Of a DNA stretch of 64,000 bases, positions 6,951 to 58,315 are shown one piece after another. Origin of the DNA: Amphiscolops sp. MND2022. Lineage: Eukaryota. The translations under genes were made by a program, and so were the position numbers. Location of the stretch: positions 49,602,001-49,666,000 of the forward strand of contig OZ076409.1 in NCBI GenBank assembly GCA_964187785.1. The letters run 5' to 3'. The notes beneath the pieces were generated by a model, which ran no database searches, was not told where the DNA came from, and saw only the letters and a list, made by a program, of their open reading frames with translations. The first letter of the stretch is position 1, and each line of letters starts with the position of its first letter.

Positions 6951-7206
6951 ACACGGCCATCGCACGTTAAACACTACTGTAGGAAAGGCAATGGGATGAC
7001 TCATCATTGATGAGCATGCTATTGAGCCTGCTGCTAGCAAGCAACTTCACAACTCTGAAAAACAAGCGCCGTGTGATGGGCCTGTGAAGTTCAGTTGCAG
7101 TTGGAGATAAGTTTCACGTGAATGAGAACATCTTTTGTCGGGCACAAATAACAGCTGAGATTACAAATCTCAACGGTTATTTTTGCCCAGTATAATTTAG
7201 TTTTAA

Positions 7207-7284
7207 GGAGGCTCTCAGTTAGGGGATCACATAGTGTCGCCCATAACAAGACCCACGGCGAGAACGTGGCCTCTGAAGGGTCTC
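7207..7284 (-). ncRNA. HDV-like self-cleaving ribozyme, copy 1 (intact fold)
   Basis: Minus strand GAGACCC-UUC-AGAGGCC-ACG-UUCUCGC-CGU-GGGUCUU-GU-P4 hairpin-A-CUGA-G(A)GCCUC: 7-bp P1 with G1-U wobble, P2, 3-bp P3, 7-nt L3, single P1.1 pair, catalytic C in CUGA. Confidence 0.75.
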
Positions 7285-8093
7285 AAAAATCTAAGTTTAC
7301 AAATTCTAGTACAAAAATATGCTAACTACCAGAGCTTCCGAAATTTTATTTGGGATCAAATAATTCAAATAATTTGAACCAAAATCAGTTATTTGAATAA
7401 TAGAAACTTGCAAGCTTTTGATCATTTAATTGGCAATAGTTGAAGCATTATTTTCGGTAATAATATTCTTAAGACTTTCATCCCAAGATAGTCTATTCAT
7501 CTTCAAAAATTTCAAGGGTTCATTGGAAAAATACTTATCTGAAACCGTATAAGGCCTAATCCGCGGTAGTAAAGAACCTTTCCATATAATTAGAGTTCGG
7601 CACTATGAAATCAATATCAAACTAATCAGACATGTTTTGTGTTTTCCATTTTTTCATTAATAATTTCTAGTGTGCGTCACATTTCAATGCATCATTCCAG
7701 GCAAAAAAATCACAATTACTTGTTAAACAAGCGGAAGCCCTAATAACTACACTTTTACAAAATTTTAATTGTACAAAATACCTTTTAACGGGTATTTACC
7801 TAGAAACTCGAAACTAATAAACATTGTGCACGGACATACAAAGGTTTTGCGACGGCGTTCTTCATTTACAGTGGGGGAAATTTTGTATTAGAGGGCAGGA
7901 ATGTTCAAAATGAGAAAGGTACTAATAACTGATCTTGATTTTCAGTTACTAGTATAATTACTAGTGCCCTAAATGCAGGAGCGGAGCGAGGTGCCATATG
8001 GTCATGCCTCAATGTTCACGGCCCCTAGAAAGTTGCGGAATTGAAATTAAACAAATCGTGAGAACATTTGCGTTAAAAAGTCTTGAACTACTT

Positions 8094-14555: not shown

Positions 14556-14765
14556 ATGAGGGTCAAGCGAACGCCCCAGAAGAATTACAGTAGTTGTTTA
14601 ATTTGCTTAGATGAATATAGATCAGTAGAATTACAGAGTTTGCATGAAAAACATAGATTACATTTAGTATGTAGAGACTGTTTAGATACCCTTTTAGTTA
14701 GTTTTGTAAATGTACTTAAATGTCCTTTATGTAGATTACCTGTAGATAATGTTTTATATTCTTAG
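14556..14765 (+). CDS. Single-exon RING-finger microprotein, 69 aa
   Basis: CLIC...HRLHLVCRDC...KCPLCR pattern; intact ATG to TAG; TATA-like TATAAGTATAAAAA ~65 nt upstream. Confidence 0.6.
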   Translation: MRVKRTPQKNYSSCLICLDEYRSVELQSLHEKHRLHLVCRDCLDTLLVSFVNVLKCPLCRLPVDNVLYS

Positions 14766-15153
14766 TTCTGTAAATTTTGCAGATTTTGTAAATTCATTGT
14801 ACTAATTCGTTTACGGACAGTGGTGTTAAAAGAAAAAAAATTATCTCATTTTAACGAAAATACTCATTGGCGAATGCGACAGCCAATCAAATGTGAGCAA
14901 AAATTTTTTGTGTTACACGTTTTAAAAAAATTGAAATGAAATTGAAACATGTTATAACAAACATATTATAAAAAAATTGTTATAACATGGGCCAATCAGA
15001 TGCAAATACAAACGAAATGTTATCCAGTTAATGAGGGATGTTGCGATTTGTTCGGACTTTTACCCTTCCCCATTTTTGCTGAATTTGCATTTTCATAATG
15101 AACAGAATTAATAACAGAATTGAACAGTGAGTGTGAATAAAAGAATTCAGCGT

Positions 15154-15462
15154 CAGGGGCTGTCAAAAATTAATTGGAGAAAAATCAAATGCATATAATT
15201 GCAATCATTTAATTGATTGCAGACTTCCAGCAATTGCAATTAATTTCCGCCAAAATATGACACCTATGAACTGAGAAAGGTAGCTGTTCTTGAAAACAAA
15301 CAAAAATTTTGGGACGAAGAACTTGTTTCAAAATGCTGTGCATAACAACGATTAATTGCAATTAATTGCAACTAAAGGATTTATTTTTTCTAAAATTAAA
15401 TTAATTGATTGCAATCTTTGATAATTGATTGTTTCCCAAAAATTAATTTTTGACAACCCCTG
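15154..15462. mobile_element. hAT-like MITE
   Basis: TIRs CAGGGGCTGTCAAAAATTAATT / AATTAATTTTTGACAACCCCTG; 8-bp TSD TTCAGCGT / TTGAGCGT. Confidence 0.8.
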
Positions 15463-15637
15463 TTGAGCGTCCCATTTTACATGTATCAGCAGTTTTCACA
15501 ACAAATGTACATACAAATTTGCGTCTACCATTTTCACGGGCCTTGCCGTCTTCGAGATAACTGTGATTATTCATACGTTTATATTGTGAAAAATAATTGT
15601 AAAAGTTGGCAACTAATCGATTTTAACACCACTGTTT

Positions 15638-15715
15638 GAGACCCTTCAGAGGCCACGTTCTCGGCGTGGGTCTTGTTATGGGCGACACTATGTGATCCCC
15701 TAACTGAGAGCCTCT
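15638..15715 (+). ncRNA. HDV-like self-cleaving ribozyme, copy 2 (intact fold)
   Basis: P1 15638-44/15668-74 (GAGACCC/GGGTCTT); P2 15648-54/15708-15 with one bulged A; P3 ACG/CGT; L3 TTCTCGG; J1/4 GT; P4 15677-15702; catalytic C15704 in CTGA. Confidence 0.75.
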
Positions 15716-16071
15716 TTAAAATCACAGAATACTGGGCTAGCGTGACTATTTGTTGTGATTTCTGATCACAACATTAACAAAAGCCCGACATTTTTGAAAA
15801 GATGTTTTTGTTGAATTCAGTAGTAAAGCAGAAATCTAAACGATCCAGCTTAGATGGCATGAACTTGCATTTCAGGTTCCCCTCCAACACCAGCTACTCT
15901 CTGGCTACTATTGATTCAATCTATTTTAATTGGTGATTGGAGAAACGTTAAAGCATAATAAAAATGATAATATTAAACAAATACCGTACATGTATAACAG
16001 TAGTAAGGTAAGCGAACCATTCTCATCATACAGCGTTTCTTTTCTAAAATAGTTTCAATCTTCTACAAAAT

Positions 16072-18147: not shown

Positions 18148-18481
18148 GCTTCAAGCGACCGAGCCATACTACAAGTTTGCTAACCTTCCAAATAAATCAA
18201 GTTCCATGCATATTAGCTGTAACAGCACTAAAAGCTAATTTGATTTTCTGCTGTATTTGAATCCTGCTGTATTGGACCAAATTTTCATTTTCTGCTGCTC
18301 CCACACGGCACGTTGTTAAACATTACGTTGTATAACTAGTTAAAAACTGTAGTTAACCGGTATAACTGTAGTAAACGCAAAGTTTCACGTGAATGAGAAC
18401 ATTTTTTGTCGGGCACAAATAACAGCTGAGATTACAAATCTAAACGAAAAGTTACTTTTGCCCAGTAAAATTAAGTTTTAA

Positions 18482-18562
18482 AGAGGCTCTCAGTTAGGGG
18501 ATCACATAGTGTCGCCCATAACAAGACCCACGCCGAGAAATTTCTGGCCTCTAAAGGGTTTC
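18482..18562 (-). pseudogene. HDV-like ribozyme, copy 3 (decayed)
   Basis: Same sequence as copies 1 and 2, but P1 5' strand is GAAACCC (A-C mismatch) and the P3 5' strand ACG is replaced by AGAAAT. Confidence 0.65.
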
Positions 18563-29587: not shown

Positions 29588-32239
29588 TTAATTTTCTCTA
29601 AATGTAGGGTACTCGTCTGTACATCGATCTCCCAAAACTTCCTCCGGAGGCACCAACTTACTCAATTGATCAACTTCTTCAGCTGAGAGAACGATATCTT
29701 TCGCTTTCCAATTTTCCTCGAACTCTTCGACTCTACATGCTCCTGGAATCGTACACACATCTTCTCCTTGAGCCAGTACCCACGCAATAGCAACTTGAGC
29801 AGGGGTGTATCCTCTTTGCAACGCAAACTTCTGGACCCTTTCGAAAAATACTTTATTCTTTTCGAAATTTTCAGCACTGAAACGTGGCAGCTGTTGTCTC
29901 CAATCACCATCTTGGAACTGGTCATGAGATTTCACGGCACCTGTGAACATTCCTTGTCCCAATGGTGAATAGGCAACTATTGTGATTCCAAGTTCGCGGC
30001 ACTTCGGGATAACTGATGCCTCGCCATCGCGAGTCCACAATGACCACTCAACTTGGACAGCACTTATTGGGTGGATCTTGTGAGCAGCCTCGATGGTTTT
30101 GGCAGACGCTTCACTCAAGCCTATATGGAGTATTTTTCCTGGAACGACATAAAAAAGTAATAAACGACATGAAAAAGTCATAAAACATTGGGGATTCGTT
30201 TTCAGCAATTCAATGTAAATACCTGAAAATTCCATTCAGCAATATTGATATTAAAAACTTCAATGAAAATAATTTGGAAGAAAGGAAATATGGCAAGCAT
30301 TTGAAGGAACTTGTGCAATTACACAAGTTCCTTCAAATGCTTGCCATATTTCATATTATTAACAGTGGCTGGTTGATTGGCTTTTTTCGATACAATACAA
30401 GGACGATTTTCCAATCAATGATTATACGATGCACAATAATGTGCCATTCAGGAATACAAGCACTCCATTTTCATGGTACACGGCAACAAACAACTTGGTT
30501 AACTGAATTGGCAGTGATCATTGTTAGGGACCCATCATGAAACCATTTCCAAAATGTTTTCAACCCACTTTCGAAATAACTTTTGCCGGTTTGCCTATCC
30601 TGACGGTAATTCACTGCGCTACAGCTATGATTCTGGTAATTGAAAGTAACCGAGCTTTGATATGTAACAATCATCCATAATCATCTGCTCTTGATTTGCA
30701 CGAAGCTTTCTCCAGGCCAAATGCATGGATGGGAGACCTCATGAAAACCCTGGATTTTGATAAAACGATGAATTTGAACAGCTGAAGCATTTTTTTAACA
30801 AACGCACATTTGTAAAATGAAGGCAACAATTTCACATATTCTCATTTCTGTAAGTACCTATTTAGTACTTGAAATTTGTACTTAAAATTGAATTCATTCA
30901 CAGGAGCAGCAAGTATGAATTCAATTATTTTTTTCAAAAAATAGTTAAACAACAACAACAAGTCTAATGAATGATTTAAAAGCATGGAAATTATCACTTT
31001 CAAAGTACTCATTACACAAAACTTTTACAACGAAATTCCCATCTTCCTCTCATCATTCCATATAAGCAATCTCTGACACGATTTTTCCTTTCTAAATGTT
31101 GCAATGTTTTAACTTTTACACAGTGGGGTTTCCACAAAAGTCAATAGAAAATTAGGTTCGCAGCAAAAAAATGTATCGGAGAATTTTTCTTGGAGTTCAA
31201 TGACAAATCAATCCGCTACTTAGCATACTCTCTAATAGGAACATTCCTTTTAAAATAATGCCTAAAATTATCCAAAAATGCAAAAAAAAAATATTTTTTT
31301 TTGCTCAAATTTCGTAATGTTTTAGCTACGCATGAGCCCTTAAAAATGTTGTCTCTAAAAATTGCAGGGCAGAAAATACCCCGAAGCTCAGAGGGCGTCT
31401 TGTTATAATAATAATAACATACAAGTTGGAAACTGACCTGTAGTTGCGCACAATATATAGGCATATACAATCATAGAAGATAAGTTGAAAGAGAAACGGG
31501 AAACATATGTGATGAAATCAGTCGCACATCGGGAGAACAAATAAGGGCATTCGATTATTCTGACCTGAAATGAACACATCAACGTTTGTAGGAAAATGCT
31601 AAGATTTACTCGTGGACTCATGCAAATATTTTTAGAGATACCGGGTCAGAATGATATTAATTACTCGACTTGATTGTTGTTGAGAAATAGATCAACTCAC
31701 TTGATTTCCCATGTCTAGACTCAAAACAACTCACCTTCGCTGACCAGTGCTTTCAACTCTTTCATAGTTTCCTCGATCGGTGTGGCGGTATCAATTCGAT
31801 GCAAGTAAAGTAAGTCGATGTAATCCATTTGCAGCCGTTCCAAACTTTCCAGACATGTTCGACGAACAAAATCTGGTTTGCCACTAATACCAACAATGGC
31901 ATTATTTTCAACGACAAACCCAGTTTTCGTAGCCACAAAAAGTTGAGACCTCGGTGTATCTAAAACAAGAGGTATTTAGCATCGAAACGGTTGGTGTTCG
32001 CTTCAGATTTTTTCTCCAGTTTTAAGGATGATACAATAACCTTTCAAAGCTTCGCCCAAAATCATTTCGCTGATATGAGGTCCGTACATAAGAGCCGTGT
32101 CAAAATGTGTCACCCCAGACGTTAGACAATATTTCAAGAAAGAAACAGCATCATCTTTCGATACATTGGATTGGTAGGCCCAATTAGCCAGTGCGGAACA
32201 GCCAACGCCAAGTTTCGGTAACTTCAACTCCACAGACAT
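29588..32239 (-). CDS. Aldo-keto reductase, 324 aa, AKR13-like (perakine reductase/YakC type); exons 32041-32239, 31735-31959, 29588-30138
   Basis: Two phase-1 GT-AG introns give a continuous 975-nt frame; catalytic tetrad D (HFDTA), Y (LMYG), K (VATKT), H (YLHRID); motifs GKILHIGLSE, QVEWSLWTRD, AYSPLGQG, TPAQVAIAWVL, IPG. Confidence 0.95.
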
Positions 32240-33692: not shown

Positions 33693-36600
33693 TTATTTGA
33701 CGTCCTCGTTCGTTTTCCAATGTGATTGTGTGACTCGACTCTGCCACGATGCTGCCATGTCTTTTCTTGAATTGTCCTTCAAGTTTCGTGTTTTTGTTTT
33801 GTCCCGCAAGAAAATGGTTGAGTCGTCATCTTTGGGGAAATCTTCTGGTGTGAGTTGCAGCGCGTTTTCTGTTTCTAAACATGTTTTTGGTCTTTCAGTT
33901 ATTATCTCCTTTATGGTATTTTGTTTTCTGCCGAATACTAATTCGAATGGGCTATTCTTATTGGCCGCTGCAGTCGTTCTGAGAGCGAATAGTAATCGAG
34001 CTAAGCCTGCGTTTCCTTGTTCGGTAACGATTGTTTTATCTGCTCTTAATTTTTCATTAAGGGTTCTAATTAGGCGTTCAATCTTTCCGTTTCCGCGATG
34101 GTCACGGACGGGGCATTCATTGTGTTTGATAAAGTGTTCATTGCAAAATTGTTTAAACGTCCCGCCGCGGAATATGGTTGCTGGGTCGGTTCTTATTCTT
34201 TTTGGAATACCGAATTGAGCTATATGTGCGTTTAAAAAATTCACTACCGTTTCTGCCGTTGGTTTTCTTACGAAGGCGGCGTTTGGCCAGTTGGTTTTGT
34301 GATCAACTGTTACTAATAAGTATTTCTTTGCCTTAGGGGCTATTTTGAAAGGCCCTGCGAAATCTATAGCTATTTCGTCGTTATGCGTGTCCGCCGCTGG
34401 TAGTTTTCCGTATTCCGATTGTTTTTGTACTGTTTTTAAATTTTTACCTGCTTTCTGGCATTGGCTGCACGACTGCGCCAGGAGCACGATTTCGCGGTGG
34501 ATCCGCGGCCACCATATGTCGGCTACTGCTGTAAGCATTGTGTCCCTTCCCGGGTGTCCCCAGTGTAAGCTCCTGAATATTGGCCGTCGTAGTTCCTCCG
34601 GTATGACTAGGCGTTCATCGATGTAGATGAAGTTGTTCTCGTCGAGGCGCAGTTCGTTATATCGTTGTTGCCAGTTTTTTGGGAGCTTATTGAACTTTTT
34701 CTGATCGAAGTTTTGTAATAATGCAATAATTGACTGAAGGAAGGAGTCGCAATCGTAAGTTGCTGCCAGCATGTTTTCTCCAATGCGATGGATGCTTGAT
34801 TTGAGTGGTGTAATTGAATTTTTGTCAACTAGGGCTAATATTATTGGTCGTTTGACGGGCGGTTTGATTGCGAGTTCATGCAATTTTCGCGTTTCACTTG
34901 CGTCTTGCTTGCGTGCCATTTCTAATTGCTGTTCGATAAATACGTCTCTGATTGTTTGTTTAATTGTTCGCGGCGGCGTAGTGTCGTTCGCACCTTCGCT
35001 TGTTTCTTTCTCGCTTGCGTCATTCTCGCTTTTGATTGGTTGTCGGCCGCCGCGGCTTGGCTTCTCATTCGCCAGTATTGAATTCTTTATCTCTGAAACA
35101 ATATTACCAGTGAAGCATTCATCCCATAATGTGCTTGGTTTTATTGAATTTCCAATTAATGGTGACGGATTTCGAGATAAATAATCGGCAATGCCTAATG
35201 TTCTTCCTGGTCCGTGTATTACCTCAAAATCGTACGGTAAAAGTCGATCTAACCACCGTGTTAATCTACTAGAGTATGTTTTGTTGGCCTTTTGGCCCTT
35301 TAAAACTGTTGCTAACGCTTTGTGATCGGAAATTATTTTAAATGGGACTCCGTAAACGTAGCTCCTGAAGTATTCTATTGACCATACTATTGCCAATAGC
35401 TCTAGCTCGTTTATCGAGTATTTTGATTCAAGTTCTGTGAGAAACCTCGATGCGAATGAGATCGGTTTCCATGTACCTTCTTCTTCTTGTTGAAGTACTT
35501 CTCCGAGTCCTGATTTACTGGCATCACGAATTATGCGGAGGGGGAATTTTCTTTTGAAGTGATTTAGTGTTGTTGCTTTCTTTATTGCTTCGTTGACTGT
35601 TACGAATGCGTTTTCTTGTTCTTCTTTCCAATTCCACTCATTGCACTTTTTTAACAATGTTCTGAACGGAAAACACAATTTTGCCAGGTCGGGGATGAAT
35701 TTATTAAATTGATTCACGGCCCCTAAAAAGGACCTGAGTTGTTTTAAATTGGTAGGTCGAAGGCGTTCTGAAATTCCTTGTACCTTACTGTATATGGGTG
35801 CCACTCCTTGTTGTGATAAGTTGTACCCGACCCATTCGATGTTCTTCGCCGCGAAGGTGCATTTATCCAATCTTAGGTTAATGTTCGCGTTGTCCAATCT
35901 TTTCAAAACTTCTTTTACCTTTGTGATGTGCTCTTCCTCGGTCCCGTGTGTGACAATTAAATTATCGTCAATGAATGCGAACGTATTGGTTATACCTGCT
36001 AGTGTTAGATCCATGATTCTTTGAAATTCTGTTGGCATCGTGGTGAGACCATAGAACCCTGTTACGAATCTGTAGATTCCGGTCGCCTTGCCCCCGATGA
36101 TTTGGAAGTTGCAGTGCCTTGACGTCTCTTCGCTCAATTGCACTTGTCGATACGCGTACGTCATGTCTAGTGTAGTGAAGAATGTTTCTCCTGGGCCTTG
36201 TTCCACGTGTTCTGCAATCATATCCATGATGTTATCTAAATTTGGCATGGGGTATTCATCTTTTACGACAATTTTGTTTAACTCTCTTGCATCCAGTGCG
36301 ATCTTTACACTGCGGTCTTTCTTAACGGTTATTCCCGTAGGCTGTAGGAAACCGTCTTCCTTTATTTCTTGCACTTTCACGATGTGGCCTTTTTGTATTA
36401 ACCGGTTTACCTCTTTGTTGACTGCATCTTGTAGTTGTATGGGTACGCGGCGGCCCTTCTGTTTTCTCACCACCGTGTCTTTGTGGAGTCTAGCATGTAT
36501 TTTATGTTGTTTTACTTTGCCTCTTCGTTCAAAGAGGTCTGGAAATTCGAGCTTTATTTCTTTGGTCCATTTAATTTCTGTTTCTTCAGTTATGTTATTT

Positions 36601-36980
36601 ACAAGGTTATTTGAATTGCACTTACCCCCCTTTTTTGGTTCTATTGCGTAATGTAAGTAGTTCAGCCAGTCTCTGCCGATAATGGATTTCGCACCTGGTC
36701 TCGCTACCAGTATCCTTGCTTTGCGGATGTATTTTCCGCCCACTTCCAGTTCACAAAATATGTACCCCAGTAAATTGACGGGCTTTCTGTTGTAATCTAC
36801 ATATTTTTCATCGGGCGGTAATGGCCGGACGAACAGTGTCTCGTATTGTAGAATCTTTTGTAGTTCTTCGTAATTTATTATCGTTACTGGGGAACCTGAG
36901 TCTATCATTAGGCAAAATTTCTTCCTGTTTATCTTGCCTTTGATCATGAACGGGGTTGATCCGTTGCCATCGATGTCCAA
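33693..36980 (-). CDS. pol: Pol polyprotein (protease-RT-RNase H-integrase), probably defective
   Basis: IDSGS protease; FIDD RT; DAS..GLG and YSINELELLA RNase H; HHCC and D-D-E integrase (IAIDF, IRTD, KIER); C-terminus frameshifted into ORFs 33436-33747 and 33099-33371. Confidence 0.93.
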   Translation of the reverse strand: MDIDGNGSTPFMIKGKINRKKFCLMIDSGSPVTIINYEELQKILQYETLFVRPLPPDEKYVDYNRKPVNLLGYIFCELEVGGKYIRKARILVARPGAKSIIGRDWLNYLHYAIEPKKGGKCNSNNLVNNITEETEIKWTKEIKLEFPDLFERRGKVKQHKIHARLHKDTVVRKQKGRRVPIQLQDAVNKEVNRLIQKGHIVKVQEIKEDGFLQPTGITVKKDRSVKIALDARELNKIVVKDEYPMPNLDNIMDMIAEHVEQGPGETFFTTLDMTYAYRQVQLSEETSRHCNFQIIGGKATGIYRFVTGFYGLTTMPTEFQRIMDLTLAGITNTFAFIDDNLIVTHGTEEEHITKVKEVLKRLDNANINLRLDKCTFAAKNIEWVGYNLSQQGVAPIYSKVQGISERLRPTNLKQLRSFLGAVNQFNKFIPDLAKLCFPFRTLLKKCNEWNWKEEQENAFVTVNEAIKKATTLNHFKRKFPLRIIRDASKSGLGEVLQQEEEGTWKPISFASRFLTELESKYSINELELLAIVWSIEYFRSYVYGVPFKIISDHKALATVLKGQKANKTYSSRLTRWLDRLLPYDFEVIHGPGRTLGIADYLSRNPSPLIGNSIKPSTLWDECFTGNIVSEIKNSILANEKPSRGGRQPIKSENDASEKETSEGANDTTPPRTIKQTIRDVFIEQQLEMARKQDASETRKLHELAIKPPVKRPIILALVDKNSITPLKSSIHRIGENMLAATYDCDSFLQSIIALLQNFDQKKFNKLPKNWQQRYNELRLDENNFIYIDERLVIPEELRRPIFRSLHWGHPGRDTMLTAVADIWWPRIHREIVLLAQSCSQCQKAGKNLKTVQKQSEYGKLPAADTHNDEIAIDFAGPFKIAPKAKKYLLVTVDHKTNWPNAAFVRKPTAETVVNFLNAHIAQFGIPKRIRTDPATIFRGGTFKQFCNEHFIKHNECPVRDHRGNGKIERLIRTLNEKLRADKTIVTEQGNAGLARLLFALRTTAAANKNSPFELVFGRKQNTIKEIITERPKTCLETENALQLTPEDFPKDDDSTIFLRDKTKTRNLKDNSRKDMAASWQSRVTQSHWKTNEDVK

Positions 36981-36989
36981 GACATATTG

Positions 36990-37925
36990 TTACTCATCTT
37001 CTTTATCTTCATCGTCTTCTTGTTCTTCTACCCAGTTGACCCGCCGCGGCGGTTGTTTCTGCGTGTTCTGCTGTTTTGGCGCCCTCCTGCACACTCTGCC
37101 GAAATGACCCGTGACTCCACACTTAGTGCATTGTTTACCTTTCGCGGGGCACACCTTTAGGTGTTCCATTGAAAAGTTTTCTTTTCCACATCGTAAACAA
37201 CCTTTCTTCTTACCTGTCACTGTGCATATCGGCTCACTTTTTATTGTGACTTTGTTTTCGCCGTATGATTTCTGGCGTAGGGTGCCCTCTTCATACGCTA
37301 TTGCGAATTCCAATGCGTCCTTTGGGGTTGTTTTTGGTTCTGTACACAGCTTTTCCTGGACTGCCAAGTTTTTCATATTCAGGATGAAAATATCGTGAAC
37401 CAGACTCTCTGTTTGTGCCCCGAAGTCGCATTCTGATGCTAGTCCCTTTAAGGAGTGCCAAAACTGCTCCAGTGTTTCTGAAGCCATTTGCTTTCTTGAG
37501 AGGAATCTAAATCTGTCTAGTGTCCTGTTTCTCTTCGTGTCGAAGGTATCTTTGCAGTTCTTTAGCAGAGCTTCTAGTGTGATCTCTGCAATCTTTGCTG
37601 ATGGATATTTGTCGGAAAATGTTTTGCGTGCTGCTGTCCCCAGTGATAGGAATAACACGCTGACGCATTTTCTTTCGGCTACTGATTTACCCAGATTGTT
37701 CAGTAGTGCTTTGTTTCTGTCATTCTCGTTGGCAACTGTTCTCAGTACTTCTGCAATGGAAATTGAATATTTTGCCGTCATCGCCACGGCGAACAGATCA
37801 CACCACTTCTTCCACTCGATGTTTGGTTTTCTCTGAGGATCGTTCCAGTATGGGGCCAGGCCTGCTATTGCTGCGCTCCCATCTTTTTGCTTCCCGTCTT
37901 CAGGATCAATATTTCGCAGCGCCAT
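36990..37925 (-). CDS. gag: Gag with two zinc knuckles
   Basis: CLRCGKENFSMEHLKVC and CTKCGVTGHFGRVC; same frame as pol, separated by one TAA. Confidence 0.92.
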   Translation of the reverse strand: MALRNIDPEDGKQKDGSAAIAGLAPYWNDPQRKPNIEWKKWCDLFAVAMTAKYSISIAEVLRTVANENDRNKALLNNLGKSVAERKCVSVLFLSLGTAARKTFSDKYPSAKIAEITLEALLKNCKDTFDTKRNRTLDRFRFLSRKQMASETLEQFWHSLKGLASECDFGAQTESLVHDIFILNMKNLAVQEKLCTEPKTTPKDALEFAIAYEEGTLRQKSYGENKVTIKSEPICTVTGKKKGCLRCGKENFSMEHLKVCPAKGKQCTKCGVTGHFGRVCRRAPKQQNTQKQPPRRVNWVEEQEDDEDKEDE

Positions 37926-39299
37926 GTTATAGCGAAAAGGAATTTGCTAACGAATAATGTATTGCAACGAACTGTATTGTTTAAAGGCAACTCTCTGCAA
38001 ATGTTTGACCTTAGCGTCGCTTCGACGAAGCTTGCTGACAGGTACTTTAAAGTTATGTTTATGTATGTTTACAGTTGTTATTTGAATTAAAGTGTTAGCA
38101 TCAATTTCTGTTTTCAAGTCAAGGCTGTAGCCTCGGTCACAGATTGTCATTATGACTTAGTGGATTGGCCCGAGATAGGAAAGCAGCTGTGTCAAATGAC
38201 TCAAGGAAAAATTATTTTGGCTCCTTCTGCGTTCATTCCAAAGTTTCCCCAAAACCGTGTTAGATCTTAAGCGTTAGAGTCTAGGCCGTTACACCCGAAA
38301 TTAGGTTAATTAATTTTTGGATTTGGCAAGACATTAATAGTTTTTTATAATTTTCAAATTTGATCGAAATTAATTTTGAGCACACCTGATCCCGAGCGTA
38401 TCACTGAATTTTTCAATCTTTGGCATTTGATTCTATTTTTTAGATCTCAAACAGCAGAAAAATTGTTGACTGCGCTTTCTAATTGATTGAACTCACCTCT
38501 TTATTCTGAACTACAGTTGGAATTCTGTGATTACCGATTAACTGGATATCAGGGGTGTGCATGCAGTAATTTATCTTGTTGATTGCGAGTGAAACTATCA
38601 ACCAGTAATTTATAGGTTGGAAATTCCTTTCCAGTGACGTATTGAATACATTCAATAATTGCTTCAGTCGAGTTCAAACTCGAAAGAAAATCAATCCTGA
38701 TTGAATATCTCCAACATCGAATATTGTCTAGCAATACTGGAACGCCGAAATGTGCAATATTTTGTGAATGTTACAGAGGCGAAGCCGAGCTTCGCAAACA
38801 CTTGAATTTGCGAAATTTCGAACCAATTAAGCAATACCATACGGAGAACCAAGGGCTAAGGAGTCGGACAATTTTTTTACTACGTGATCAGTTTGAAACA
38901 AACAGTGAATGGCCCAAGTCGGCGCCCCTTCCAAGGTTCAAGTTTTTTAAATATGCAAAAGGACAATATTGTTAAAATTTCACCAATTTTACGGCGCCAA
39001 AAATACCCGAAAGGATGCGCACAAGACTCGAAAACCATTTTCCCCAATTGAAAACAGCAAAAAACCCATATTCTCAACCGAAAACCTTTCAAAAAATGAA
39101 AAAATAGAGGAAAAATTTTATTCGAAACTTTTCGAAAAAAAAACTTTGATGCAGGTCTCCGGTAAGTCACATAGTGCTCCGGGGGGAGTCTCATAGTGCT
39201 GAAAAAGGGAAACCTTCTGCTTCGGAATGCTTGTAAAAAAACCAGAGCCGCATATGCGGTAAAGGAGTCGGCTTAAGTCTTTTTCCTTCTGACTCGCTT

Positions 39300-44707: not shown

Positions 44708-45900
44708 GGTTACCAGTCACTTGGCTTACTACCATTTGGACTGTCATAATAGGTCCGAAAGAATAGGTCCGAATTTTTTAGCCCGACCATAAGTCCGAAA
44801 GAATAAGTCCGAATCGATTAAGACCGAAAACTGACCGACTGATTAAGTTCGAACGTGCGATTTTTTGGAAATAGTTCGAATTTGTCAAATGGCAGAGACT
44901 TTTAGTTTATATAATGTGGGGCATATGCGATGTATGCACGCTCGCCCTCACCGTCGCAAAGACCAGCTCCCACTACGATCGCTTCGCGATCTCCGTTCCC
45001 GCTAGGTCTTTGCTCCTGTTCGACCTCGCTTAGCAAGATGGGAATATAAGCGGCCCCAAGGGGCCGCGGGGCACTAGAGGAAATGGGGAAATATCAGAGG
45101 CACGTTTTGTACTTAGAAAAACCGCGTTAAATTTCGTCCATTCTGCAAAAAATCGCATTAAATTTCGTTGGTTTTTCATAACAATGGACTATTTTTTCAT
45201 AAAAAACCGATTCGGACTTCGTTAGGTTTAAGTCATTCGTATTTCATCCATTGTGCATCCCAGTCGAACTTTTTCTTTCTGACTTATAGCCTTGTTGAAA
45301 TAGTCGGACTTCTTACTTCTTTCTTGCAATTCGGTCATCGGCATTCGGACCTATTCGCCGCACCCCTACTATTTGGCTTAATTTTTTCGTCGAGTCATTT
45401 GGCTTAAAATATTTAAGCGAAGTGACCACAAAATTAAGCCAACTCCATTCCAACTCAAGGAATAACAATGTCAACTCCCGGAAATATCATAATGTGGGGC
45501 ATATGCGGTGTATGCACGCTCGCCCTCACCGTCGCAAAGACCAGCTCCCACTACGATCGCTTCGCGATCTTCGTTCCCGCTAGGTCTTTGCTCCTGTTCG
45601 ACCTCGCTTAGCAAGATGGGAATATAAGCGGCCCCAAGGGGCCGCAGGGCACTAGAGGAAATGGGGACATATCCGAGAGGTACTTGATATGACATGTTAT
45701 AATAATACGCTGACTACGTTAAAAAGATAAATTCGACAAAATCTGCCACGTGTTTTCAACTAAGTGGTTTTAAGTCAAATGACTTTAAGCCAAGTGACCA
45801 ATACTCGAGACACTTAGCTTAAAAAATTTAAGCCAAATGACTAATTGTGTCAAACCAAATCACTTTAAGCCAAATGGCATTAAACCAAGTGACCATTACC
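44708..45900. mobile_element. Non-autonomous TIR element inserted in gypsy pol
   Basis: Exact 8-bp TSD CGTCTTCT, whose removal restores the AIKEDAPIRVEQD frame; imperfect TIRs ...GTCACTTGG(C/T)TTA; AAGCCAA subterminal arrays. Confidence 0.8.
44738..45365. mobile_element. MULE-like element nested in the previous element
   Basis: 22-nt GG-starting termini sharing AATAGGTCCGAA; 9-bp TSD CTACCATTT / CTACTATTT; GTCCGAA arrays direct on the left and inverted on the right. Confidence 0.7.
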
Positions 45901-46246
45901 CGTCTTCTTTGATTGCCCCAAAGGTATATGATGCCTTGTTTATTGGGATGGGGGTTGTTTCTTTGATTGACAGTTTCATTTTCGTCATCTCTTCGTCGCG
46001 TGCATGTTGCCTTGCTTGTTCTTTCTGCAACAGGATCTCTTCTTCGGTCTCAATAGTTTTTTCTGGGAGGAAGAAGAGTTGCTCTTCATCTGCGACGTCT
46101 GTCGACTGTAAGTTTACTTGTATTGATTGGGTCGTAATATCATTTCTGATTTTTAGTTCCACTCTTTCTTTAGGGTCGAGGTCAATTCGCCATAGGAAAT
46201 CAGCTGCAGTGTTTTGCGTCCCCGCTACTTGCATGATGGGAAAATT

Positions 46247-47447
46247 TGGTGGGCGGAAGTAGGTCGAAGGAACGGGATCGAAAATCAGAGTTAGTCCTCG
46301 GGTCGACATACCAAATTTTTGAATGGGATCGAAACAACTCGGATCGAAATTTTTATAACGTAGTCAGATATGTTCACAAGGGATTTCAATTAATCGATAC
46401 CACTAATAATTGTAATCGTTGGCTGCTCAAATAATCGTATCGCATAATCGTGGCAATTATGTCCCTTGATAATTGTAATCGTGATTAACTCCTCAAAATT
46501 CTAAAACAAATGTGAAAAAAAAAAACAATTTAAACTTAACATTGGCATTATAAACAGAAAACTGAAAAGTGGAATGGAACCAAAGCCAAACACAAAGGTA
46601 CAATATGACACAACTGAATTTACATCAAACACATATCATGCACGTAAGTGCGAAACGTTTGCAATTCAAAGTTTTTAACTGACAAAATCATCTTATCAAA
46701 CTAATAAACAAAAAATATAGAATACAACAGCAAGAAAAACAAAGATATGAACTGCAGTATACAGTAACGTGGAACGTAATTCTGACGGACTCCATAATTC
46801 TTCTCCCTCGATAGCATCAGCATGTGCCAAAAATTTGTGAGCAACCAAATTTACTATGTGAGCTAGGCGTTTGTCCCACCGTTAGAGGCTTGAATTATTG
46901 TTGAGCATGTGACACATTTTCGCCGCAAACTTCGCTGTCCATTCCGGTGCTCAGCAAGAAACTGCTTCCTTACTTGTTCGTTTCGGCAGTTTTCGATCGG
47001 ACACCACACAGTGTTTTTCACCGAAACTTGTTGAACCTCTTCTTCTCCCACCGTCTCGTATTCAGTGTCAGACGTTGACATATTTCTGAAACGTAAATAA
47101 TCGAAATTATCAGAAATAATTGAAATAATTGAAAATATTTCTGGACAAATAACCGAAATCGTAATTGCACGGGAAATAATCGTAATCGATTCGATTAATT
47201 GGTATCGTAATTGAAATCCCTGATGTTCCCATACCCCTAGTGCCCTGAATACAGGAGCGAAGCGAAGCGTAGCGACGTGCCATATGGCCATGCCTCAATG
47301 TTGCTACTTGGCGAAGGGAGCGAAGCCACCGAGCCATACAACAAATACGATGAAATTCGACCGCATTCTATTCGATCCCTGCAATTCGATCAAAAGGTTC
47401 ACCTCTGTCTTTTCGACCAGAAAAATTCGACCTATTTACAGCCACCC
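46247..47447. mobile_element. MULE-like element inserted in gypsy RNase H
   Basis: 9-bp TSD GGGAAAATT / GTGAAAATT splitting VLQFNF|(H)IMQV; imperfect 22-bp TIRs ending TAGGTCGAA; GATCGAA motifs. Confidence 0.75.
46378..47222 (-). mobile_element. hAT deletion derivative with a BED zinc-finger remnant, nested in the MULE-like element
   Basis: TIR (C/A)AGGGATTTCAATTA; 8-bp TSD ATGTTCAC / ATGTTCCC; minus-strand fragment EQVRKQF...RKCVTCSTIIQASNGGTNA resembles a hAT transposase BED finger. Confidence 0.75.
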
Positions 47448-50400
47448 GTGAAAATTGAATTGCAGTACGTAGTCACATGCATTCCATAATGTAGGGGGAA
47501 TCGCTTTTGTTTGGAAAAACCTCGTTGCTGATCTGTTGTCAGTCATTACAAGAGTTGGTAGGGTTGCTTCCCACAATATGTGGCTGTATTCTAAGAATGC
47601 GTGATCGATTGCCAGAAATTCTTTGCAATAAATTGACATCTTCAGTTGTGCTGGTGAGAATACTTTTGATCCAAATGCTACAGGAGCAAAAGTTTTCTTT
47701 TTTGGAATTGAGTTTTTTGTCGTTCTCTTCTTCGATCATTAGCGCATATACCGAGGCGCGAAAACTAGCGTCTGTCATTAGGACGTATTGTCGTCCTGTG
47801 ATTGGTTGTTTGAGAGCCAATCCGCATGCCTCCGCCCTCGCTGTGTTGATCGCATTGTAGTTATCTAGCAATTCCTCTGTGACCTTGATTTGTTTGTCTG
47901 CTTTCAGTAGCTCGTAGAAACCAAGTTGTTTTTCTGACAACCGCGGAATATAGTTGTGGTAGTAGTTGACAAAGCCTAGGTATCTTTGTACCTGTTTCTT
48001 TTATTTCGGGAATACTACGTAAGAATTTCTGGATTTTTTGGTCTTGGGGGCGATTTCTTGTGGGGTGATCGTTCTTCGAAAGAATTCGACCTCGGTCACT
48101 CCAAAATGGCATTTGTCGATGGATAGTTTAAATCCTGCTTGTCTGATGCATTCGAAGGCAGCTCGGATGTTTCGTATCAGTTGCGTCACGGAGTTGGCAG
48201 CTATTCCAATATCGTCCACATATTGCGCGCACTGGTCGGCTTTGATTACTTTATCCAAATATTCTCTCATGAAGCTTGAGAATGCTGACAAAGCTCTGCT
48301 CAGTCTTGTGCCAGTCGTTTGTATGCGAAGGTTCTGCTTGCAAAGTTGAACGCCAGCATTTCGTTGGATCTTTGATCTGCCACTTGTAGGCAGTGATATG
48401 CCTGAGAGCAATCTAATTTACAGAACAATTTTTTCCCAGCTAGGTGTTGAGCTGCGTCTGACAGGGTGCTGACTGGATGATTGTTGTTGATATAGTCGTC
48501 AGATATCAGTGCGTTGATTTTTCGCAGGTCGACGAGTAGACGTGGTTTACCATTTGGTTTACGTTGTGCAAAAATCGGGCTGGCATATTTTGAAAATGGT
48601 AATGTCGTGATTATGCCATACCTGTGCATGGGCGCTAGTTCGACTGCTAGGTCTTCTCTCAGGTTGATTGGTACTGGTAGGCTCTGTGTATATATGGGGC
48701 GTTCGTCTTTTGGCGTCAGTTTCACCTCGAAGCTATTGTTGATGCCGATGTCGAGTCTGTGACGCGCAAAAATGTCGTTGTATTCAACTTATGTTTGCTC
48801 AAGCTGTTTTTTGTTGTTTCCGTCAATCTGCGATCCTTCCCATTTGAACATATCGAGGAACTCTTTCCTTGATTCTGGATCTTTGGTTGGGTCGAGTTGT
48901 TCTTTCTTTATGAGTTCTCTGATTTCTTTCAATATTCGCCGTTGTATTGGCGTGTGTTCATCTTCGTTTCCCGGGTTTTCGGGTGTTGGGAACCAGAGGT
49001 TTTCGTCATTTTGTTCGTTATTTGTGGATTTCTTGAGCTCCATTATATACATGTGCGTGTCATCTGGGTCTTGTAGGGTGGTCAGTGTTGCAACGTCTAT
49101 GAGTCGTATCTGTTTGGTGTCCTCTGGCTTAAGAATTTGCAATTCTGCCAATTTGGTATGGTTTTTCATGGTGTGAAGGAAATCTGTCAAATTGGCTATT
49201 CGGAGGTTGATTCGTTTGTTATGAGCTGTGGCCTGTGCTGGTGCAACGATGATGGTGGCTGTTACATCAAACTGTGGTAGCAGTTGTACTGCACCTGTGA
49301 TGTCGGTTGCATTGGTGGTTATGACTATTGCATTTGCTGTTGTTGTTTGATGTGGTAGCAGCGTCTGATTCCGTTCGGCCATGATTTGGAGTGGTTTGGG
49401 GTTACAGTTTTTTTTTCGTCCGTCTTGGCTAATGTCATTTGGACGTGTGGGAAGGTGATGGTCCCGTTGGCCGTATCTATGACAGCTTGGTGGTTTCTCA
49501 AGAAGTTCAGTCCAAATATGGGGAATGACGTCTTTGATAGGATGACAAAGGTGTCGGTGAACGTATAAGTTCCGATATTGAATTGAATGTCAGCAGTGGC
49601 AATAGGTTGTTCTAGTTGGGCGTTTGCGCATTCGATCTTGAAAGGAGGTTGTGGGTATTCCTTTATAACGCAATTGTCACTGCTCATTTTAATGGCGTTG
49701 TAATCAGACCATGACATGGCATTGATGAACGCTCCTGAGTCAACGAGCCGTCCATGGTTATTCCGCCGAATTCGAGTGGCAAGTACAGCATTCGTCTTCT
49801 GTTCTTGAGGACTATGGTCGAGTGTAGAGGTATGTAGGTATCCCCATCTTTTTCAGTTATGCACTCTTTGATTGAGTTGAGCGAGGTGGGGAAGTCGTTA
49901 TGGAAGATAGGTATCTTGGTGGAGTCGTGAGTATCTTCCTCAGTCGTTTGTGACGAAGGGTGGTCGTCGCGGGCGTTTTCGTTTTGGTTTAGTTGTGTTG
50001 TAACAGAGAGTTCTTTGGTGGTGATGGTTGGTTGGGAGAATAGTTTTGTGTGTTTTTGATAGTCGCATCTGTAGTCCTGATCTTGTAGGAATGTTGCTTC
50101 CTGTTCTTTTCCTGAGGGTGGTCTTTTCATGGAGGCGATTGCTTGTTGTTTCAGCCAAGCTTCTGTTGGAGTACCAGTGCATTCTGCTGTTGTGTCGGAT
50201 GTGTATCTGATAGGGGGGTCTTCTGGTGACCCTCGCGTCTACTGTTTCCCCAAAGCGCAGGCGCGGCTTAATTAGTTTTTTTGTTCGTCGGCAGGTTTAG
50301 TTGTCGTTTGTAGGACGGAGGTGTCCGTCTTTCGCTCTTGTGTGTTATGACGTTTGGGTCGTGGGTCGTTGGCAGAGTTGGCTCCATTCCAACAATCTTC

Positions 50401-53400
50401 CGTTTTGTGGGGTTTGCCGCAAGTGTCGCATTTGGGCGGTTTGCCTGCACTGTAATTGGTTTGTCCGTTATTTTTCCGAGTTTGCAGCCATTTGTCGCGT
50501 TTCAATTTCCTGCATTCGGCCTTGTAGTGTCCGAATTTGTTCCAATAGAAGCAGTATCCTTTTTTGGTGTTCTGCGTCGTGTTCTCAACTTGTTTTGTCT
50601 CTGGTTTTGTTTGAGCCGGTTCTATTTTATTGAGTGGTACGAGAGTTACTTCATCTGGCGCTCCAAAGCCGTTAAGTCTCATTCCTCGCTCTAAATGGAG
50701 TACGATATCATTGTATGGTTTGTCCTCAAGATACGCCCTGCTGAGGATTTTCTTTACATGATCTGGCAATTTTGCGTAGATTGCTTTGTCAATAATTTGT
50801 TGGGCTTCCAAACCAAAAGCTTTTTTCGCAGTTTTTTGAAGTACGTCCAGAAATTCATGTAACTTTTGTGTTGCAGGATCAAATTTGAGTGAGTCCCACT
50901 CGCATCTGGCTTTTGCCATTGACAGATAATCTCCGAATCGACGTTTAAAAATCGTCATTATTTCGTCTAACGAGTCCTTCTTGGAGTCTTCAATGTTTCA
51001 GAACGCCTAGAGGGCGTCTCTTCTTAGCAACGAGTGAAAGTAGTTGATTTTTTGGGGTTCCGTGAGGTGCGGGTACATTTTTGTTGTTACGGAACAAGTC
51101 TTCAAAGAGTTCAAACTTGTCAGATTTCCCATCGAAAGTTGGGAGCGATGCCGTTAGGGCCTTCGGCATGGGTAGTGTGGTGGAGTCAAGCTTTTCTGCT
51201 CCGAATAGTGTTCTGGCCGCCGTTGGACGTTCTTTGGCCGCTGGTTGACTTTGAGACCTTATTTTTGTTCTTTTCGGGTGGTTTGTGGAGTCGGTTAGGA
51301 CTCCTGTCACCATGCTACGACTTACATACGTGTCAGAGTCGTGATTTGATGTAGAGTTGATTCGTACTGTTTTCGTTGGAGTATGGAAACTCCTTGTTTC
51401 ATTTTCGTTTCGTCTATTGTGCTATTTCTTACATTTTCTCCTGTTTCAGATCTTAGGAGCTTGAACATTTCTCTTTGGGATACCATAAGAAGGTTTTTGA
51501 TCTCAGACGTAATCTCCTCTTTTAAAGAAACTCTCAAACTCTCCAAGGCACTATTTTCTACCCTAGGAGATTTTGGTTTTGACGGGCCTAAAAGGGCCAA
51601 GGGACAAGAGTTTTCCGCAATGACTGGTGAAACAAAACCTTCACTTACGTTTTCAACAACTTCTTGTTGATTGTTTCTTCTTTTCTGGCTTCTAGTAGTA
51701 GACATTTCGATGTAGAGAGAACTTGATTTTGGAAAATTCAATTTACCTTCGAAGTATTTTCAACAAAGTTGAGATTGAGACTTGGAAATTTGAGCAAGTT
51801 GTGAGATAACTGTTTTTCACATTTGGAAAAGACTGAGTCCCTAATCATCAAATTTTACCGTATTTTTACCCTCCCAGCATCATTTGATCACAACTATAAT
51901 CCCTAACTTTCCTCGAACAATTAGTCATTTCCTGTTTTGTCCATGAAAAAATCACGAAGATTCTAAGTTTGCGTCAACATTTGGTCAAATTTTAGGACAC
52001 GACGATTTTAATCTAGTATTAGTCATCAATCATGATCATATTATATAATCCCGGCGTCCTTTTGCTTCCTCCCAAGCAGGAAGTAGATATTACTTCAGTC
52101 TGTCAAACCGGAAATGCTTCCCTGTTTTACTGCTTTGGTTCGCGGGAAATTGACGCTGAGATGACGCTGACGTGAACAACTATCACCTGATTTTGAATAT
52201 CAGCATGAGGAAAAATATGACTAATTTCCAAATCATGATTACCTGAGCGATGCTAGGAATGATACTTTTATGAATTTGGACTCTTTCTTTTCGTTAGGAA
52301 TAGAATTAGGATTACGATATTAAAACATACATTAACAACATTTTGGCCTTGTCGCGACAAATGCGACAAGTTGGCAACGTAACTTTAACAACATGAAACT
52401 TTAAACACAGCAACACAATATTAGTACATTCTGGTATTAATAACTGCGCTCACAGAACGATGGTAAATGTTGTACAAAGCAGGTCAATATAAATCAGTGA
52501 ATAGCGAATACTGGTCCTCAAACATTTGGTTTACAAAATATTCCGGGTATTAAAATACATTCCTTTATCTATTCTCAAGGACATAAACTGTGACCTCTAT
52601 GATTAGTGGATAACAAAATCCCAATTAAAGTTCATTTCTTACTAAAATTTTAGGTGTACGATATTTTAAATGACGAGCAACTGACGCGAATTCGTTAAGC
52701 CACGATCTTTTAATAAAGATCGTGATAAAATGTGTGTTTCCTCCGTAATAGTTTCATTTAGATGAGAAATCTATTATCCTATCCTGGAGAAGTTAAACAA
52801 CTGAATTTGGTAAGTTTTTGACATCGGTTTAGCGTAGTTTCTTCAACTCAATAGAGCGGATTTGTCTGATTCCTCTAATTTCATAAACTTGTCAACGTCA
52901 TGTTGACGAGTTTTCTTGGCAGAAATGAGATTTTGACTAGTTTGACGTAATGCTGACGAGTACTTTAGGAATGGTTTCTTAGCTAGCTGCCGGGGTAGTG
53001 ACGTCACAATGGCGGTAAATTGGAAAGATTTCTAGCAATGCTATTAGTATAGGCGGATAATTGGAATGATTTTCTGGTACGCATAGGAGAGGCAGTGACG
53101 TCAATTGGTATACCTTCAAACTTGTCTGCGCCTTTTTGACGACAAACGTACATGTATACTTATTTCTACTGCTATTTTGTTTACTTAGCGCTGTGCAGAC
53201 GTCATAATCCGCATTAATTGCTGTTCAAAGTGCAATTAGGTTACCTCTCTTGGAAAAGGCCTAATCTCTTCGGCGTGCCATCTCAATGTATTTTCTATTT
53301 TAGGTCTGATTGATGTTCCTTTTGGAGATGATTTTGGATATGTTTTCATTTAGATTGGCTTATGTTCTCTTTGTTTTAAAACGTGTCCTAGTTTAGTTTC

Positions 53401-56400: not shown

Positions 56401-58315
56401 GTCATTGTGCATAATATATGTATTTCATTCAGGCGAGAAGATTCGCGATGTATCGCAGTTAGAAAGATGAAGAAGTACTCCTTATGCGAAGAGAACATGT
56501 AAACCATGTAATTGAAGGTAAGTGAGCAACTAGCAACACTAGAAATATCTTGGGTGACATGAACTATCATTGAAGTGTGATCTTTATACAACTATTGGTC
56601 GAATAATTCGTCGTTGGAGGCAAAAAATGTTTAGCAAAGTATATTTAGAAGCGCTCCCTATGCCATAAAAGAACTAAATAAAATCGAAGTCAAAAGCATG
56701 CAAACTTAAAGCAACGACGCACAATAAAAAGAAAACATCAAGTATGATAGAATGTTAAGATGAGACCACCCGAAACACGCGCGATGGACAAATTTAATTG
56801 AGGCGGATTTTGAATATTCGAATAGACACAACCGAGTTAGGGAGCTACCAGCAAGTTGAGCTTTAGGACGAAGGCAAGGGACCTGGCTAAGCTAAAGAAC
56901 TCTTTTGTCGGTAGTAGTTCTAAAGTCAGAAATTTTACAAATCCGTGACTTGCTTCTGAATATTTGAATGAATCGTGGATCTCAATCTTAGCTAGTTTTG
57001 TTATATTTATTTGATGAATTTTGAAGAGACGTTTAGTTATCGCTATTAAAAGTAATTGGATTATTGATAATTTCTTTTTGTGCTCGATTGAGTTGAGCCA
57101 AGGAGCATACGCGAGAGAAACCTAGCCAAGCTAGTCAATTACGAAAGCACTTACCCACCAAACAAAAAACCTTTTTCCGTTAGAGAAAGGTTCTTGGGAA
57201 AATCTGTCCACCCTCGCAATCTGAATTTTCTACACTTAGACTCAAAAATAGCAAAAGGACTTCAAAAAGTCAAAATATTCCCTTCCACAGTTCTCGAAAA
57301 ACACAAAACTTGGACCGAATTTGTGCGCTAAGGGGACACTTTGAGATGTTTCATCCATTATGCCTCAAATCATCAAAAAATGTAGGAGGGGGACACTCTG
57401 GTGAAAACAATTTTTTGAAAAAGTGTCACAACGCCAAGAAAATTGAAAATTGAAAGGGAAGACACTTTGATAGTTTCAACATCCATTGTGTCGCAAAATT
57501 CCAAAACAAATTGAAGGGGGAACCCTTTGGGGAAACTTTGTTTTGAAAAAAGTCACAATTCCAAAAAAACTGAAAGGAGGATCCTGCAGTCTCGCCCGGT
57601 ATTGTATCTTGGGCTGAAAAAAGGAAAAACTTTTTTGGCTCAGTTCCCTGCGCCAACAGGTACAATGTTGTAGTACCCTAACATTTTGTAGAACTTTTGG
57701 TAGAACTATTTTGGTCAATTCAGGTGTATTGAAAAAGCCATTAACGAAAAGCCATGGCTAGTCAACTCGTTTCTCTAGCAAAGCGTCTACTAAAAATTAT
57801 AAAGGGGGCCTTCGAAGACCTGCAAAAATTTTTTCCGATAAAAAGTCTCACAATGCCAAAAATTGAAAAGACCCTCTTGGCTTTTCAACATCAATCGTTG
57901 CAAAACATCAAAAGAATTGAAGGGGGATCCTTTGAAGACATTAAATAATTTCCGAAAAAAAGTCTCACAATGCTAAAAAAACTGAAAGAAGGGACCCTTT
58001 GGGATTCTCCAACATCCATTCTGTCGCAAAACTTCAAAAAATTAACGGAGTCCTTTGGAGAAAAAAAATTGAAAAAAGTCACTCAATGCCAAAAAAACTG
58101 AAACGGTGACCACAATATATCCACAACCTCATCCTTTAAAAAATTTTCGACCTTCCCAAGAGTTGAGCCGATGAGTTTATGTCCCTAAAACCCTCACACT
58201 GTAAACCTTCAGCCAATTTTGATATAAACCTGGTGAACCTTTTTTCTCATTCATTTTGTATATTTCCTGAGTAATCGAAAAGGAAACCTCACAAAGTTGG
58301 AAAAGCAAAAAAAGG

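Follow-up and report, generated by a model that had tools for sequence, protein, structure and literature searches.

The window analysed here is a stretch of 64,000 nucleotides from contig OZ076409.1 of Amphiscolops sp. We found in it three copies of a module that joins an HDV-like ribozyme to an H/ACA-like 3' half. The copy at 15638 (plus strand; 153 bases, up to 15790) sits 3' of a small RING-finger ORF on the same strand (14556-14765), which runs from ATG to stop, scores above the Pfam cut-off for zf-C3HC4 and matches zf-C3HC4_3 with E=3.9e-6; this ORF may have an additional upstream exon. Between the two lies an 817-bp TIR insert (14818-15634) that has 14-bp terminal inverted repeats, no matching TSD and an AATAAA at 15136. 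A second complete module occupies 7136-7284 on the minus strand, with the ribozyme at 7284-7207, the catalytic C at 7218, one P2 mismatch, a hairpin of its own and an ACA ending at 7136; a deleted RING remnant lies beside it at 7798-7863. The third copy, at 18407-18562 on the minus strand, is likely dead: a 3-nt insertion breaks P3 of its ribozyme (18562-18482) and there is no ANANNA. The first-pass annotation had described the similarity between the copies as starting at TTT|G, right at the predicted cleavage site. This holds for the 15638 copy against the other two and is due to the TIR insert, which stops 3 nt upstream of G15638, but the other two copies share about 120 nt further upstream. 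Elsewhere in the window there are ORFs of Gypsy-type LTR retrotransposons at 33693-37946 (minus strand) and at about 45800-51800, with Pfam confirming RT, RNase H and integrase in 33693-36986, as well as an Aldo-keto reductase exon at 29588-30235 (minus strand, Pfam E=7.9e-37) and about 1 kb of a 5-bp satellite at 58200-59200.

All three modules are located inside a YR transposon of 51-57 kb, of which the window holds the right part (1-20905), as judged from colinear loci, shared ends and protein relatives. The element of about 51 kb starts about 29,950 bases to the left of the window and ends at 20905 (contig span 49572049-49622905, or -29951 to 20905 in window positions), and a longer form measures 57.5 kb. 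It is colinear at about 99% identity over 15-50 kb at 10 of 10 other loci, several of which are cut by assembly gaps. Four left and seven right readable ends are common to the copies, with short, imperfect inverted ends and a CACA core. With about 100 copies at 99% identity the element is young, and it is a patchwork of nested MITEs. The number of modules per element is four, or five in the long form; three follow a same-strand RING ORF and one the deleted remnant. The SET+YR and C2H2/JmjC-like ORFs of the element are not within the window. A HMMER search with the left-end ORFs, which are on the minus strand, returned 2,410 relatives at E<=0.001; among 18 of these that were scanned, SET was found in 9 and a weak Phage_integrase match in 1, and the named relatives are uncharacterised insect and fish proteins. 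The element inserts into a microsatellite, has short ends and produces no long TSD. A passage in PMC8869645 reports that some CryptonV YR transposons insert into microsatellites, and since our element combines this behaviour with a YR ORF, we refer to the host as CryptonV-like, a provisional name taken from that one passage. A sister YR family, which stands head-to-tail against the element in two copies (L089-L090, L076-L078), has related ends, a module of its own and ORFs for YR, SET and JmjC-like proteins that are homologous to those of the element.

The sequence and the coordinates that had been given for the ribozyme motif were correct, and all named helices and loops could be parsed again at 15638-15715 on the plus strand as a nested double pseudoknot. 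The predicted cleavage site is 5' of G15638 and the catalytic base would be C15704. P1 is formed by 15638-15644 and 15668-15674 and opens with a G-U pair, P2 by 15648-15654 and 15708-15715 with 15709 bulged, P3 by ACG and CGU, and P4 comprises 15677-15703; L3 reads UUCUCGG, J1/4 reads GU, and J4/2 reads CUGA, including C15704. The single C-G pair of P1.1 together with GU in J1/4 resembles the arrangement in the CPEB3 ribozyme. Searching with a 26-nt core gave 2 matches in the window versus 0 in 100 shuffles, and a descriptor based on structure only found 2 sites in 114 kb versus 0 in 20 shuffles. The motif is not a chance match. In Rfam no ribozyme family was matched, neither at gathering score nor at E<=10, the Rfam models being family-specific; the miRNA-type matches that were returned fall below gathering score and lie on other hairpins. 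The membership of the HDV-like class therefore rests on structure and covariation.

The window belongs to an assembly of 1.07 Gb. We grouped 201 instances into 30 clusters with distinct flanks and aligned 27 of them, omitting one cluster with a hairpin insertion and two with a mutated ACA. The pseudoknot pairs for the covariation test had been named in advance. Among the 27 variants 92.6% of the cells are paired, and both sides have changed in 17 of 37 pairs. The covariation score is 0.378 versus 0.197 in shuffled alignments (0/500), where the variants are kin, so that counts are not independent and the shuffle figure is not a probability; with slid partners the score does not exceed 0.117. 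Compensatory pairs were found in P1 (3/7), P2 (1/7), P4 (6/9) and the 3' hairpin (7 of 10 tested). The proportion of paired cells is 96.8% in P1, 95.8% in P2 and 97.5% in P3, although P3 shows no covariation among the 27 variants, and a search for a variant with an exchanged first P3 pair found none. P4 has been swapped for different hairpins between families, P1.1 is C-G in 27/27, and the first P1 pair is GU in 21, GC in 4 and AU in 1 of the 27 variants. L3 carries U1, C3 and G6, an invariance that is partly produced by selection of the instances, L3 being part of the search filter; an L3 variant, UUCCCGN, is present in 133 copies. As the filter for the clusters had included J4/2, the catalytic position was counted again on copies picked by the L3/P3 core only. 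It is C in 51 of 54 distinct copies, while the base after it is free (U in 31, A in 20, G in 3); the same core also picked 2 further loci without the 3' part. The base before the cut is U in 26/27 variants and the run upstream is U-rich.

The helix parse, the covariation and the count of the catalytic C together support the HDV-like class that had been proposed, with cleavage as its predicted activity, and the variation between copies argues that the ribozyme at 15638 is real and selected. Between the 15638 copy (copy C) and copy E, the ribozyme is 94.9% identical, compared with 69.7% for the RING coding stretches and 45-57% for the 60-nt flanks, and it is 100% identical to that of two loci whose flanks are unrelated. 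Gene conversion as well as selection could contribute to this near-identity between families. Protein coding on the opposite strand of the module was considered and rejected, since length changes of +1 and -2 occur within the core.

The end that the first-pass annotation had assigned, 15790, is the last base of a conserved ACA box which had not been described there. In every family P2 is followed by an A-rich linker, a single hairpin of 50-57 nt and ACA. In the 15638 copy these parts are a single-stranded linker with an H-box-like ANANNA (ACAGAA, 15724-15729, plus strand), a rod-like hairpin of 55 nt (15733-15787) and the ACA directly after it (15788-15790), so that the mature 3' end is predicted at 15793 (ACA+3). 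The ACA was never part of any search filter. It stands directly 3' of the hairpin in 27 of the 30 flank clusters, the three clusters left out of the alignment lacking it, whereas ACA makes up 1.7% of flank triplets. When distinct copies were chosen by the ribozyme core alone, 48 of 54 had kept the ACA (42 by position window and 6 shifted by a P4 deletion) and 6 lacked it. From G+1 to ACA+3, 26/27 aligned variants measure 147-164 nt, and a decayed array measures 137 nt. Both ends of the module thus carry putative processing devices at a constrained distance, which supports and extends the earlier suggestion of a processed non-coding RNA. The sequence of the hairpin turns over between families, while 7 of 10 tested pairs covary.

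Passages of PMC5207380 describe a ruler in H/ACA RNAs, by which the boxes lie 24-28 nt from the terminal loop and U is over-represented as the last loop base. The apical loop of the window hairpin ends in U, 24 nt from ACA. This distance is 24 nt in 21 of 28 variants and 21-24 nt in 26 of 28, where 21-23 nt is below the range given in those passages, and the last loop base is U in 25/28. Distances of 24 and 23 nt were measured in two CACTA families that were identified afterwards and have new hairpin sequences, the second lacking ANANNA, and 5 of 8 further loci passed the geometry test as opposed to 8 of 600 random stretches. The H box is more variable. ANANNA occurs within 10 nt before the hairpin in 24/28 variants versus 14% of flank windows, but in one fixed register only in 15/28; the third A is kept in 27/27 and the first in 17/27 aligned variants, the first position being U or C in families H, N and O, and a CACTA family with 22 tandem units has no ANANNA. 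Neither a CAB nor a BIO motif was found in the 3-5-nt hairpin loops. A 5' hairpin of H/ACA ruler length is absent before the H box, with the ribozyme in its place; from the P4 loop to the H box there are 32 nt in the 15638 copy. We also considered a telomerase RNA, because P4 of the 15638 family contains CCCUAAC. This sequence is paired, however, and is missing from families F, H, N and O and from L198, and the candidate was rejected.

The module is not limited to YR elements. Patterns of the exact core matched at least 1,174 sites in the genome (845 + 196 + 133), while reversed controls gave 0. Divergent families reside in TIR elements with CCC...GGG ends, in which 11 of the 12 copies with both ends in view (49 examined) have a 2-bp TSD, and copies are also found in MITEs of CACTA elements. 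Searching for Transposase_21 gave 19 matches, and at 6 of the 10 loci that were examined, belonging to three families, a module follows the 3' end of the transposase ORF in the same orientation; none was found at the other 4. The distance from the transposase ORF is 1.2-2.7 kb, or about 0.5 kb for the first unit of an array, and the module is about 400 bp from the right end of the element where this end was seen. In one CACTA family it forms 22 tandem units of about 248 bp, of two alternating types. The large CACTA elements (L264-L283) have a SET domain ORF adjoining or fused to the transposase. In the MITE families (L093-L137) a tandem repeat of about 160-170 nt reaches the cleavage site. A Polinton-like region (L217-L219) with ORFs for a double jelly roll capsid, an rve integrase, a protease-like and a polymerase-like protein contains two units of 1,143 bp with one module each. 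These copies follow the same exon-like motif as the TIR copies and may therefore represent a nested TIR fragment. Many copies have decayed, such as the one at 18562 in the window and a 316-bp array; the latter was considered as a retrozyme-type array and rejected, its P2 being broken and its P4 deleted.

Outside the assembly, a search of viral contigs found 0 members. A metagenome scan gave 26 matches, 25 of which are GC-rich chance matches of bacterial type without P1. The remaining contig, L198, is a true member with a ribozyme that is 93.6% identical and a hairpin of its own; for its flanks and hairpin no counterpart was found in the Amphiscolops assembly. A further module-bearing family (L153-L160, L198, L199) ends in a (TAC)n microsatellite about 450-600 bp downstream, a type of end that was also seen in the metagenome member.

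The surroundings of the module give some hints on the transcript that contains it. In 3 of 4 cases checked, AATAAA or ATTAAA is present between the gene and the module, so the mRNA may end before the ribozyme. Copies in MITEs and in the Polinton-like region are preceded by a short motif that resembles an exon and includes a 5' splice-like site; such a site lies upstream of the module in three families, and a branch-point/AG-like sequence follows about 28 nt after ACA in some copies. This sequence arrangement hints at a possible intronic location. The 3' splice-like sites amount to 6/26 near the module versus 13/104 far from it, and to 6/19 at +27 to +30, a window that was picked after the data had been seen. 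The exon-like motif has 429 exact copies, with a same-strand module within 1.5 kb in 6 of 30; it is general to the TIR superfamily and hence not specific to the module. The motif (L224-L253) consists of a conserved GC-rich hairpin, a pyrimidine start and the 5' splice-like site, and occurs also in 114-bp tandem arrays; it could be a promoter with first exon or another structured RNA.

Taken together, we slightly favour the view that the module is a two-part small-RNA gene of DNA transposons, in which excision by the ribozyme and an H/ACA-like tail would yield a stable nuclear RNP with an RNA of about 155 nt. This model builds on the conserved fold computed for both halves, the fixed spacing and length, and the position on the sense strand downstream of transposon genes, namely RING in the YR element and the transposase in CACTA elements. 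Transcription by Pol II would continue into the module from the 3' region of the element gene or from one of its introns. Self-cleavage at G15638 would then leave a 5'-OH end that offers no start for 5'-3' exonucleases; passages of PMC6938672 report that a ribozyme product with such an end escapes degradation. As the 5'-OH end blocks these exonucleases, the ribozyme may replace the missing 5' hairpin, and neither an own promoter nor splicing would be needed. Dyskerin, NOP10 and NHP2 would load on the hairpin and ACA, and 3' trimming would halt at ACA+3. The last step is the least certain and rather doubtful: by analogy to viral small nuclear RNAs, the RNP might decoy or tether the host H/ACA machinery to the advantage of the element, acting beside the element-encoded SET, JmjC-like and RING proteins. 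What speaks against a two-part gene is the imperfect H box, the single hairpin and the lack of BIO and CAB motifs; according to parts of PMC5207380, atypical 5' hairpins in H/ACA RNAs lead to weak accumulation unless a BIO motif is present. In the wider formulation, to which we give an even chance, the module would be a natural ribozyme-H/ACA hybrid and a promoter-less class of small nuclear RNA gene, with an HDV-like ribozyme in the place of the 5' hairpin. In several unrelated large DNA transposons (YR, CACTA, the Polinton region) it would have been maintained by selection, in some cases in the form of polycistronic arrays, and would be an RNA tool that acts against the host dyskerin machinery or through it.

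Several other explanations have to be considered. The selected function may be the cut itself, by which the ribozyme would destroy or uncouple the read-through transcript or pre-mRNA and so limit the output of transposase or RING protein or of long read-through RNA, the hairpin and ACA being an accessory or a by-product that stabilises. The sense-strand position 3' of coding genes in both classes of element, close to the right end in CACTA, agrees with this idea, as does the exon-like motif with its splice-like site ahead of the MITE and Polinton copies. Moreover, the U before the cut and the U-rich run upstream would give an oligo(U) cyclic-phosphate end, a candidate for LSm-type recognition. 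However, a cut alone requires neither a hairpin of fixed length nor an ACA, both of which are kept despite full turnover of the sequence; 22 tandem units would be superfluous for it, and where poly(A) signals precede the module the mRNA may stop before the ribozyme is reached. We regard this explanation as unlikely. A working single-hairpin pseudouridylation guide, with family-specific pockets for the 3' two-thirds of LSU rRNA, for U1, U4, U5 or U6, for mRNAs or for element transcripts, appears to us very improbable. An asymmetric internal loop does recur at a distance of 14-16 nt from ACA, and divergence is faster in the hairpin than in the ribozyme (51-84% versus 68-100% identity to copy C among families). 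In a pocket scan of 28 variants against SSU, 5.8S, the assembled 5' LSU and U2 of the same genome, however, none beat all 20 shuffles, the best result being 1/20 for three variants, and no target recurred between families. In most families, the two strands that would have to form the pocket are paired to one another. The paired middle of the hairpin and the lack of a match to rRNA and U2 argue that the RNP is not a guide for pseudouridylation. The U2 genes of this genome form a long tandem array (C4:81044275-81083745), and the assembly contains the rDNA copies (L206-L215) in fragments, in which no more than about 1.5 kb of LSU could be recognised.

The first-pass annotation had proposed, as an alternative to a processed ncRNA, a non-autonomous, ribozyme-headed mobile RNA by comparison with R2/RTE, which our results do not support. 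This model, be it an R2 SIDE/NARTc-type element or a snoRNA that retroposed into DNA transposons and then spread along with these, seems quite improbable to us, even though the module occurs in unrelated classes of elements, ribozyme-headed SIDEs are known (PMC3414825) and the TSDs of old insertions would have been lost. The multiplication of the copies took place inside DNA transposons: the 30 best genome matches keep 96.6-100% identity throughout the 1.5 kb upstream and for at least 1.1 kb downstream, and the exact junction of the 15638 copy occurs 96 times in the genome. Between subfamilies, identity does drop to background right before G+1 and after ACA, so the expected clustering of copy boundaries was found, but purifying selection alone explains it. 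No TSD of 6 nt or more surrounds the module in 26 contexts (control mean 0.81), and neither a poly(A) nor a repeat tail follows the ACA in the variants inspected. That no RT ORF is adjacent had been noted at this locus and extends to the family, with 0 of 71 distinct contexts having a sense RT ORF within 1.3 kb downstream. The queries were one LINE and one Gypsy RT, complemented by a scan for any ORF of at least 150 aa, which gave two sense ORFs that match neither query; two LINE matches near modules are antisense neighbours. In addition, copies A, C, E and L199 are at the same place behind RING paralogues (a RING remnant in the case of L199), and F and H share their place in related TIR elements, which argues for vertical descent with selection in place.

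Most eukaryotic HDV-like ribozymes of known role process the 5' ends of retrotransposons, and engineered fusions of ribozymes with snoRNAs exist. The family described here is predicted to give these ribozymes another role, in forming the 5' end of a small RNP, and another host, the class II transposons. In the main texts of openly accessible papers we found no HDV-like ribozyme joined to a box H/ACA snoRNA or to dyskerin. For HDV-like ribozymes and DNA transposons the papers retrieved were on R2, one paper that mentions both HDV-like ribozymes and snoRNAs treats them as separate motifs, and among the matches listed no title deals with ribozymes in CACTA, EnSpm, Polinton or Crypton elements. 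New would be the fusion to an H/ACA-like tail and the class II hosts, while published supplementary lists of ribozymes could already contain the family. If the proposed mechanism is true, the module represents a third route of H/ACA RNA biogenesis, beside intron trimming and capped transcription, and conserved RNA genes, familiar from viruses, are part of the cargo of eukaryotic DNA transposons as well. It would also provide a self-excising and self-stabilising cassette of 150 nt with a swappable hairpin, for making stable small RNAs from any Pol II transcript. The YR transposon of 51-57 kb merits a description of its own.

Among known systems, the hosts are related to CryptonV, with which the YR element shares the YR protein and the insertion into microsatellites (PMC8869645, one passage), and to CACTA/EnSpm, which have Transposase_21, CCC...GGG ends and a 2-bp TSD in common with the TIR elements. 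In the literature searched, we found no account of such elements with a size of 51-57 kb and SET, JmjC-like and RING cargo, nor of a ribozyme RNA gene in them. The ribozyme itself has the layout of HDV, CPEB3, drz and theta ribozymes, for which the relevant parts of PMC10879173 and PMC5640933 give a nested double pseudoknot, a P1 of 7 bp with a purine-pyrimidine first pair, a P3 of 3 bp and a catalytic C as first base of J4/2; P1, P3 and the catalytic C are arranged in the same way here. In contrast to HDV-like ribozymes with Rfam families, it is unmatched there, is fused to an H/ACA-like tail and has eukaryotic class II transposons as hosts. The processing of a small RNA of mobile DNA is also known from theta ribozymes, but they trim the RNA upstream of themselves, whereas the ribozyme of the module would be the 5' half of the product. 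In R2, R2 SIDEs and L1Tc/NARTc, too, a co-transcript is given a precise 5' end by an HDV-like ribozyme, and short non-autonomous forms exist (PMC3414825); our module differs in having no RT ORF, LINE 3' UTR, tail or TSD, and its copies come from the transposition of host DNA elements. For the 3' half, passages of PMC5207380 point to AluACA RNAs and vertebrate telomerase RNA, which share with the module a 3' hairpin of ruler length, a terminal U and ACA, and whose H box has an imperfect counterpart in the ANANNA of the module's linker. AluACA RNA is repeat-derived, as is the module, and not a guide, which probably holds for the module too; in hTR, a structured domain of foreign origin likewise precedes the H/ACA tail. 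Unlike these RNAs, the module is encoded by DNA transposons, has neither CAB nor BIO nor a conserved telomere template, and its 5' hairpin is replaced by the ribozyme. Canonical H/ACA RNAs consist of two hairpins, while the module consists of one hairpin and a ribozyme.
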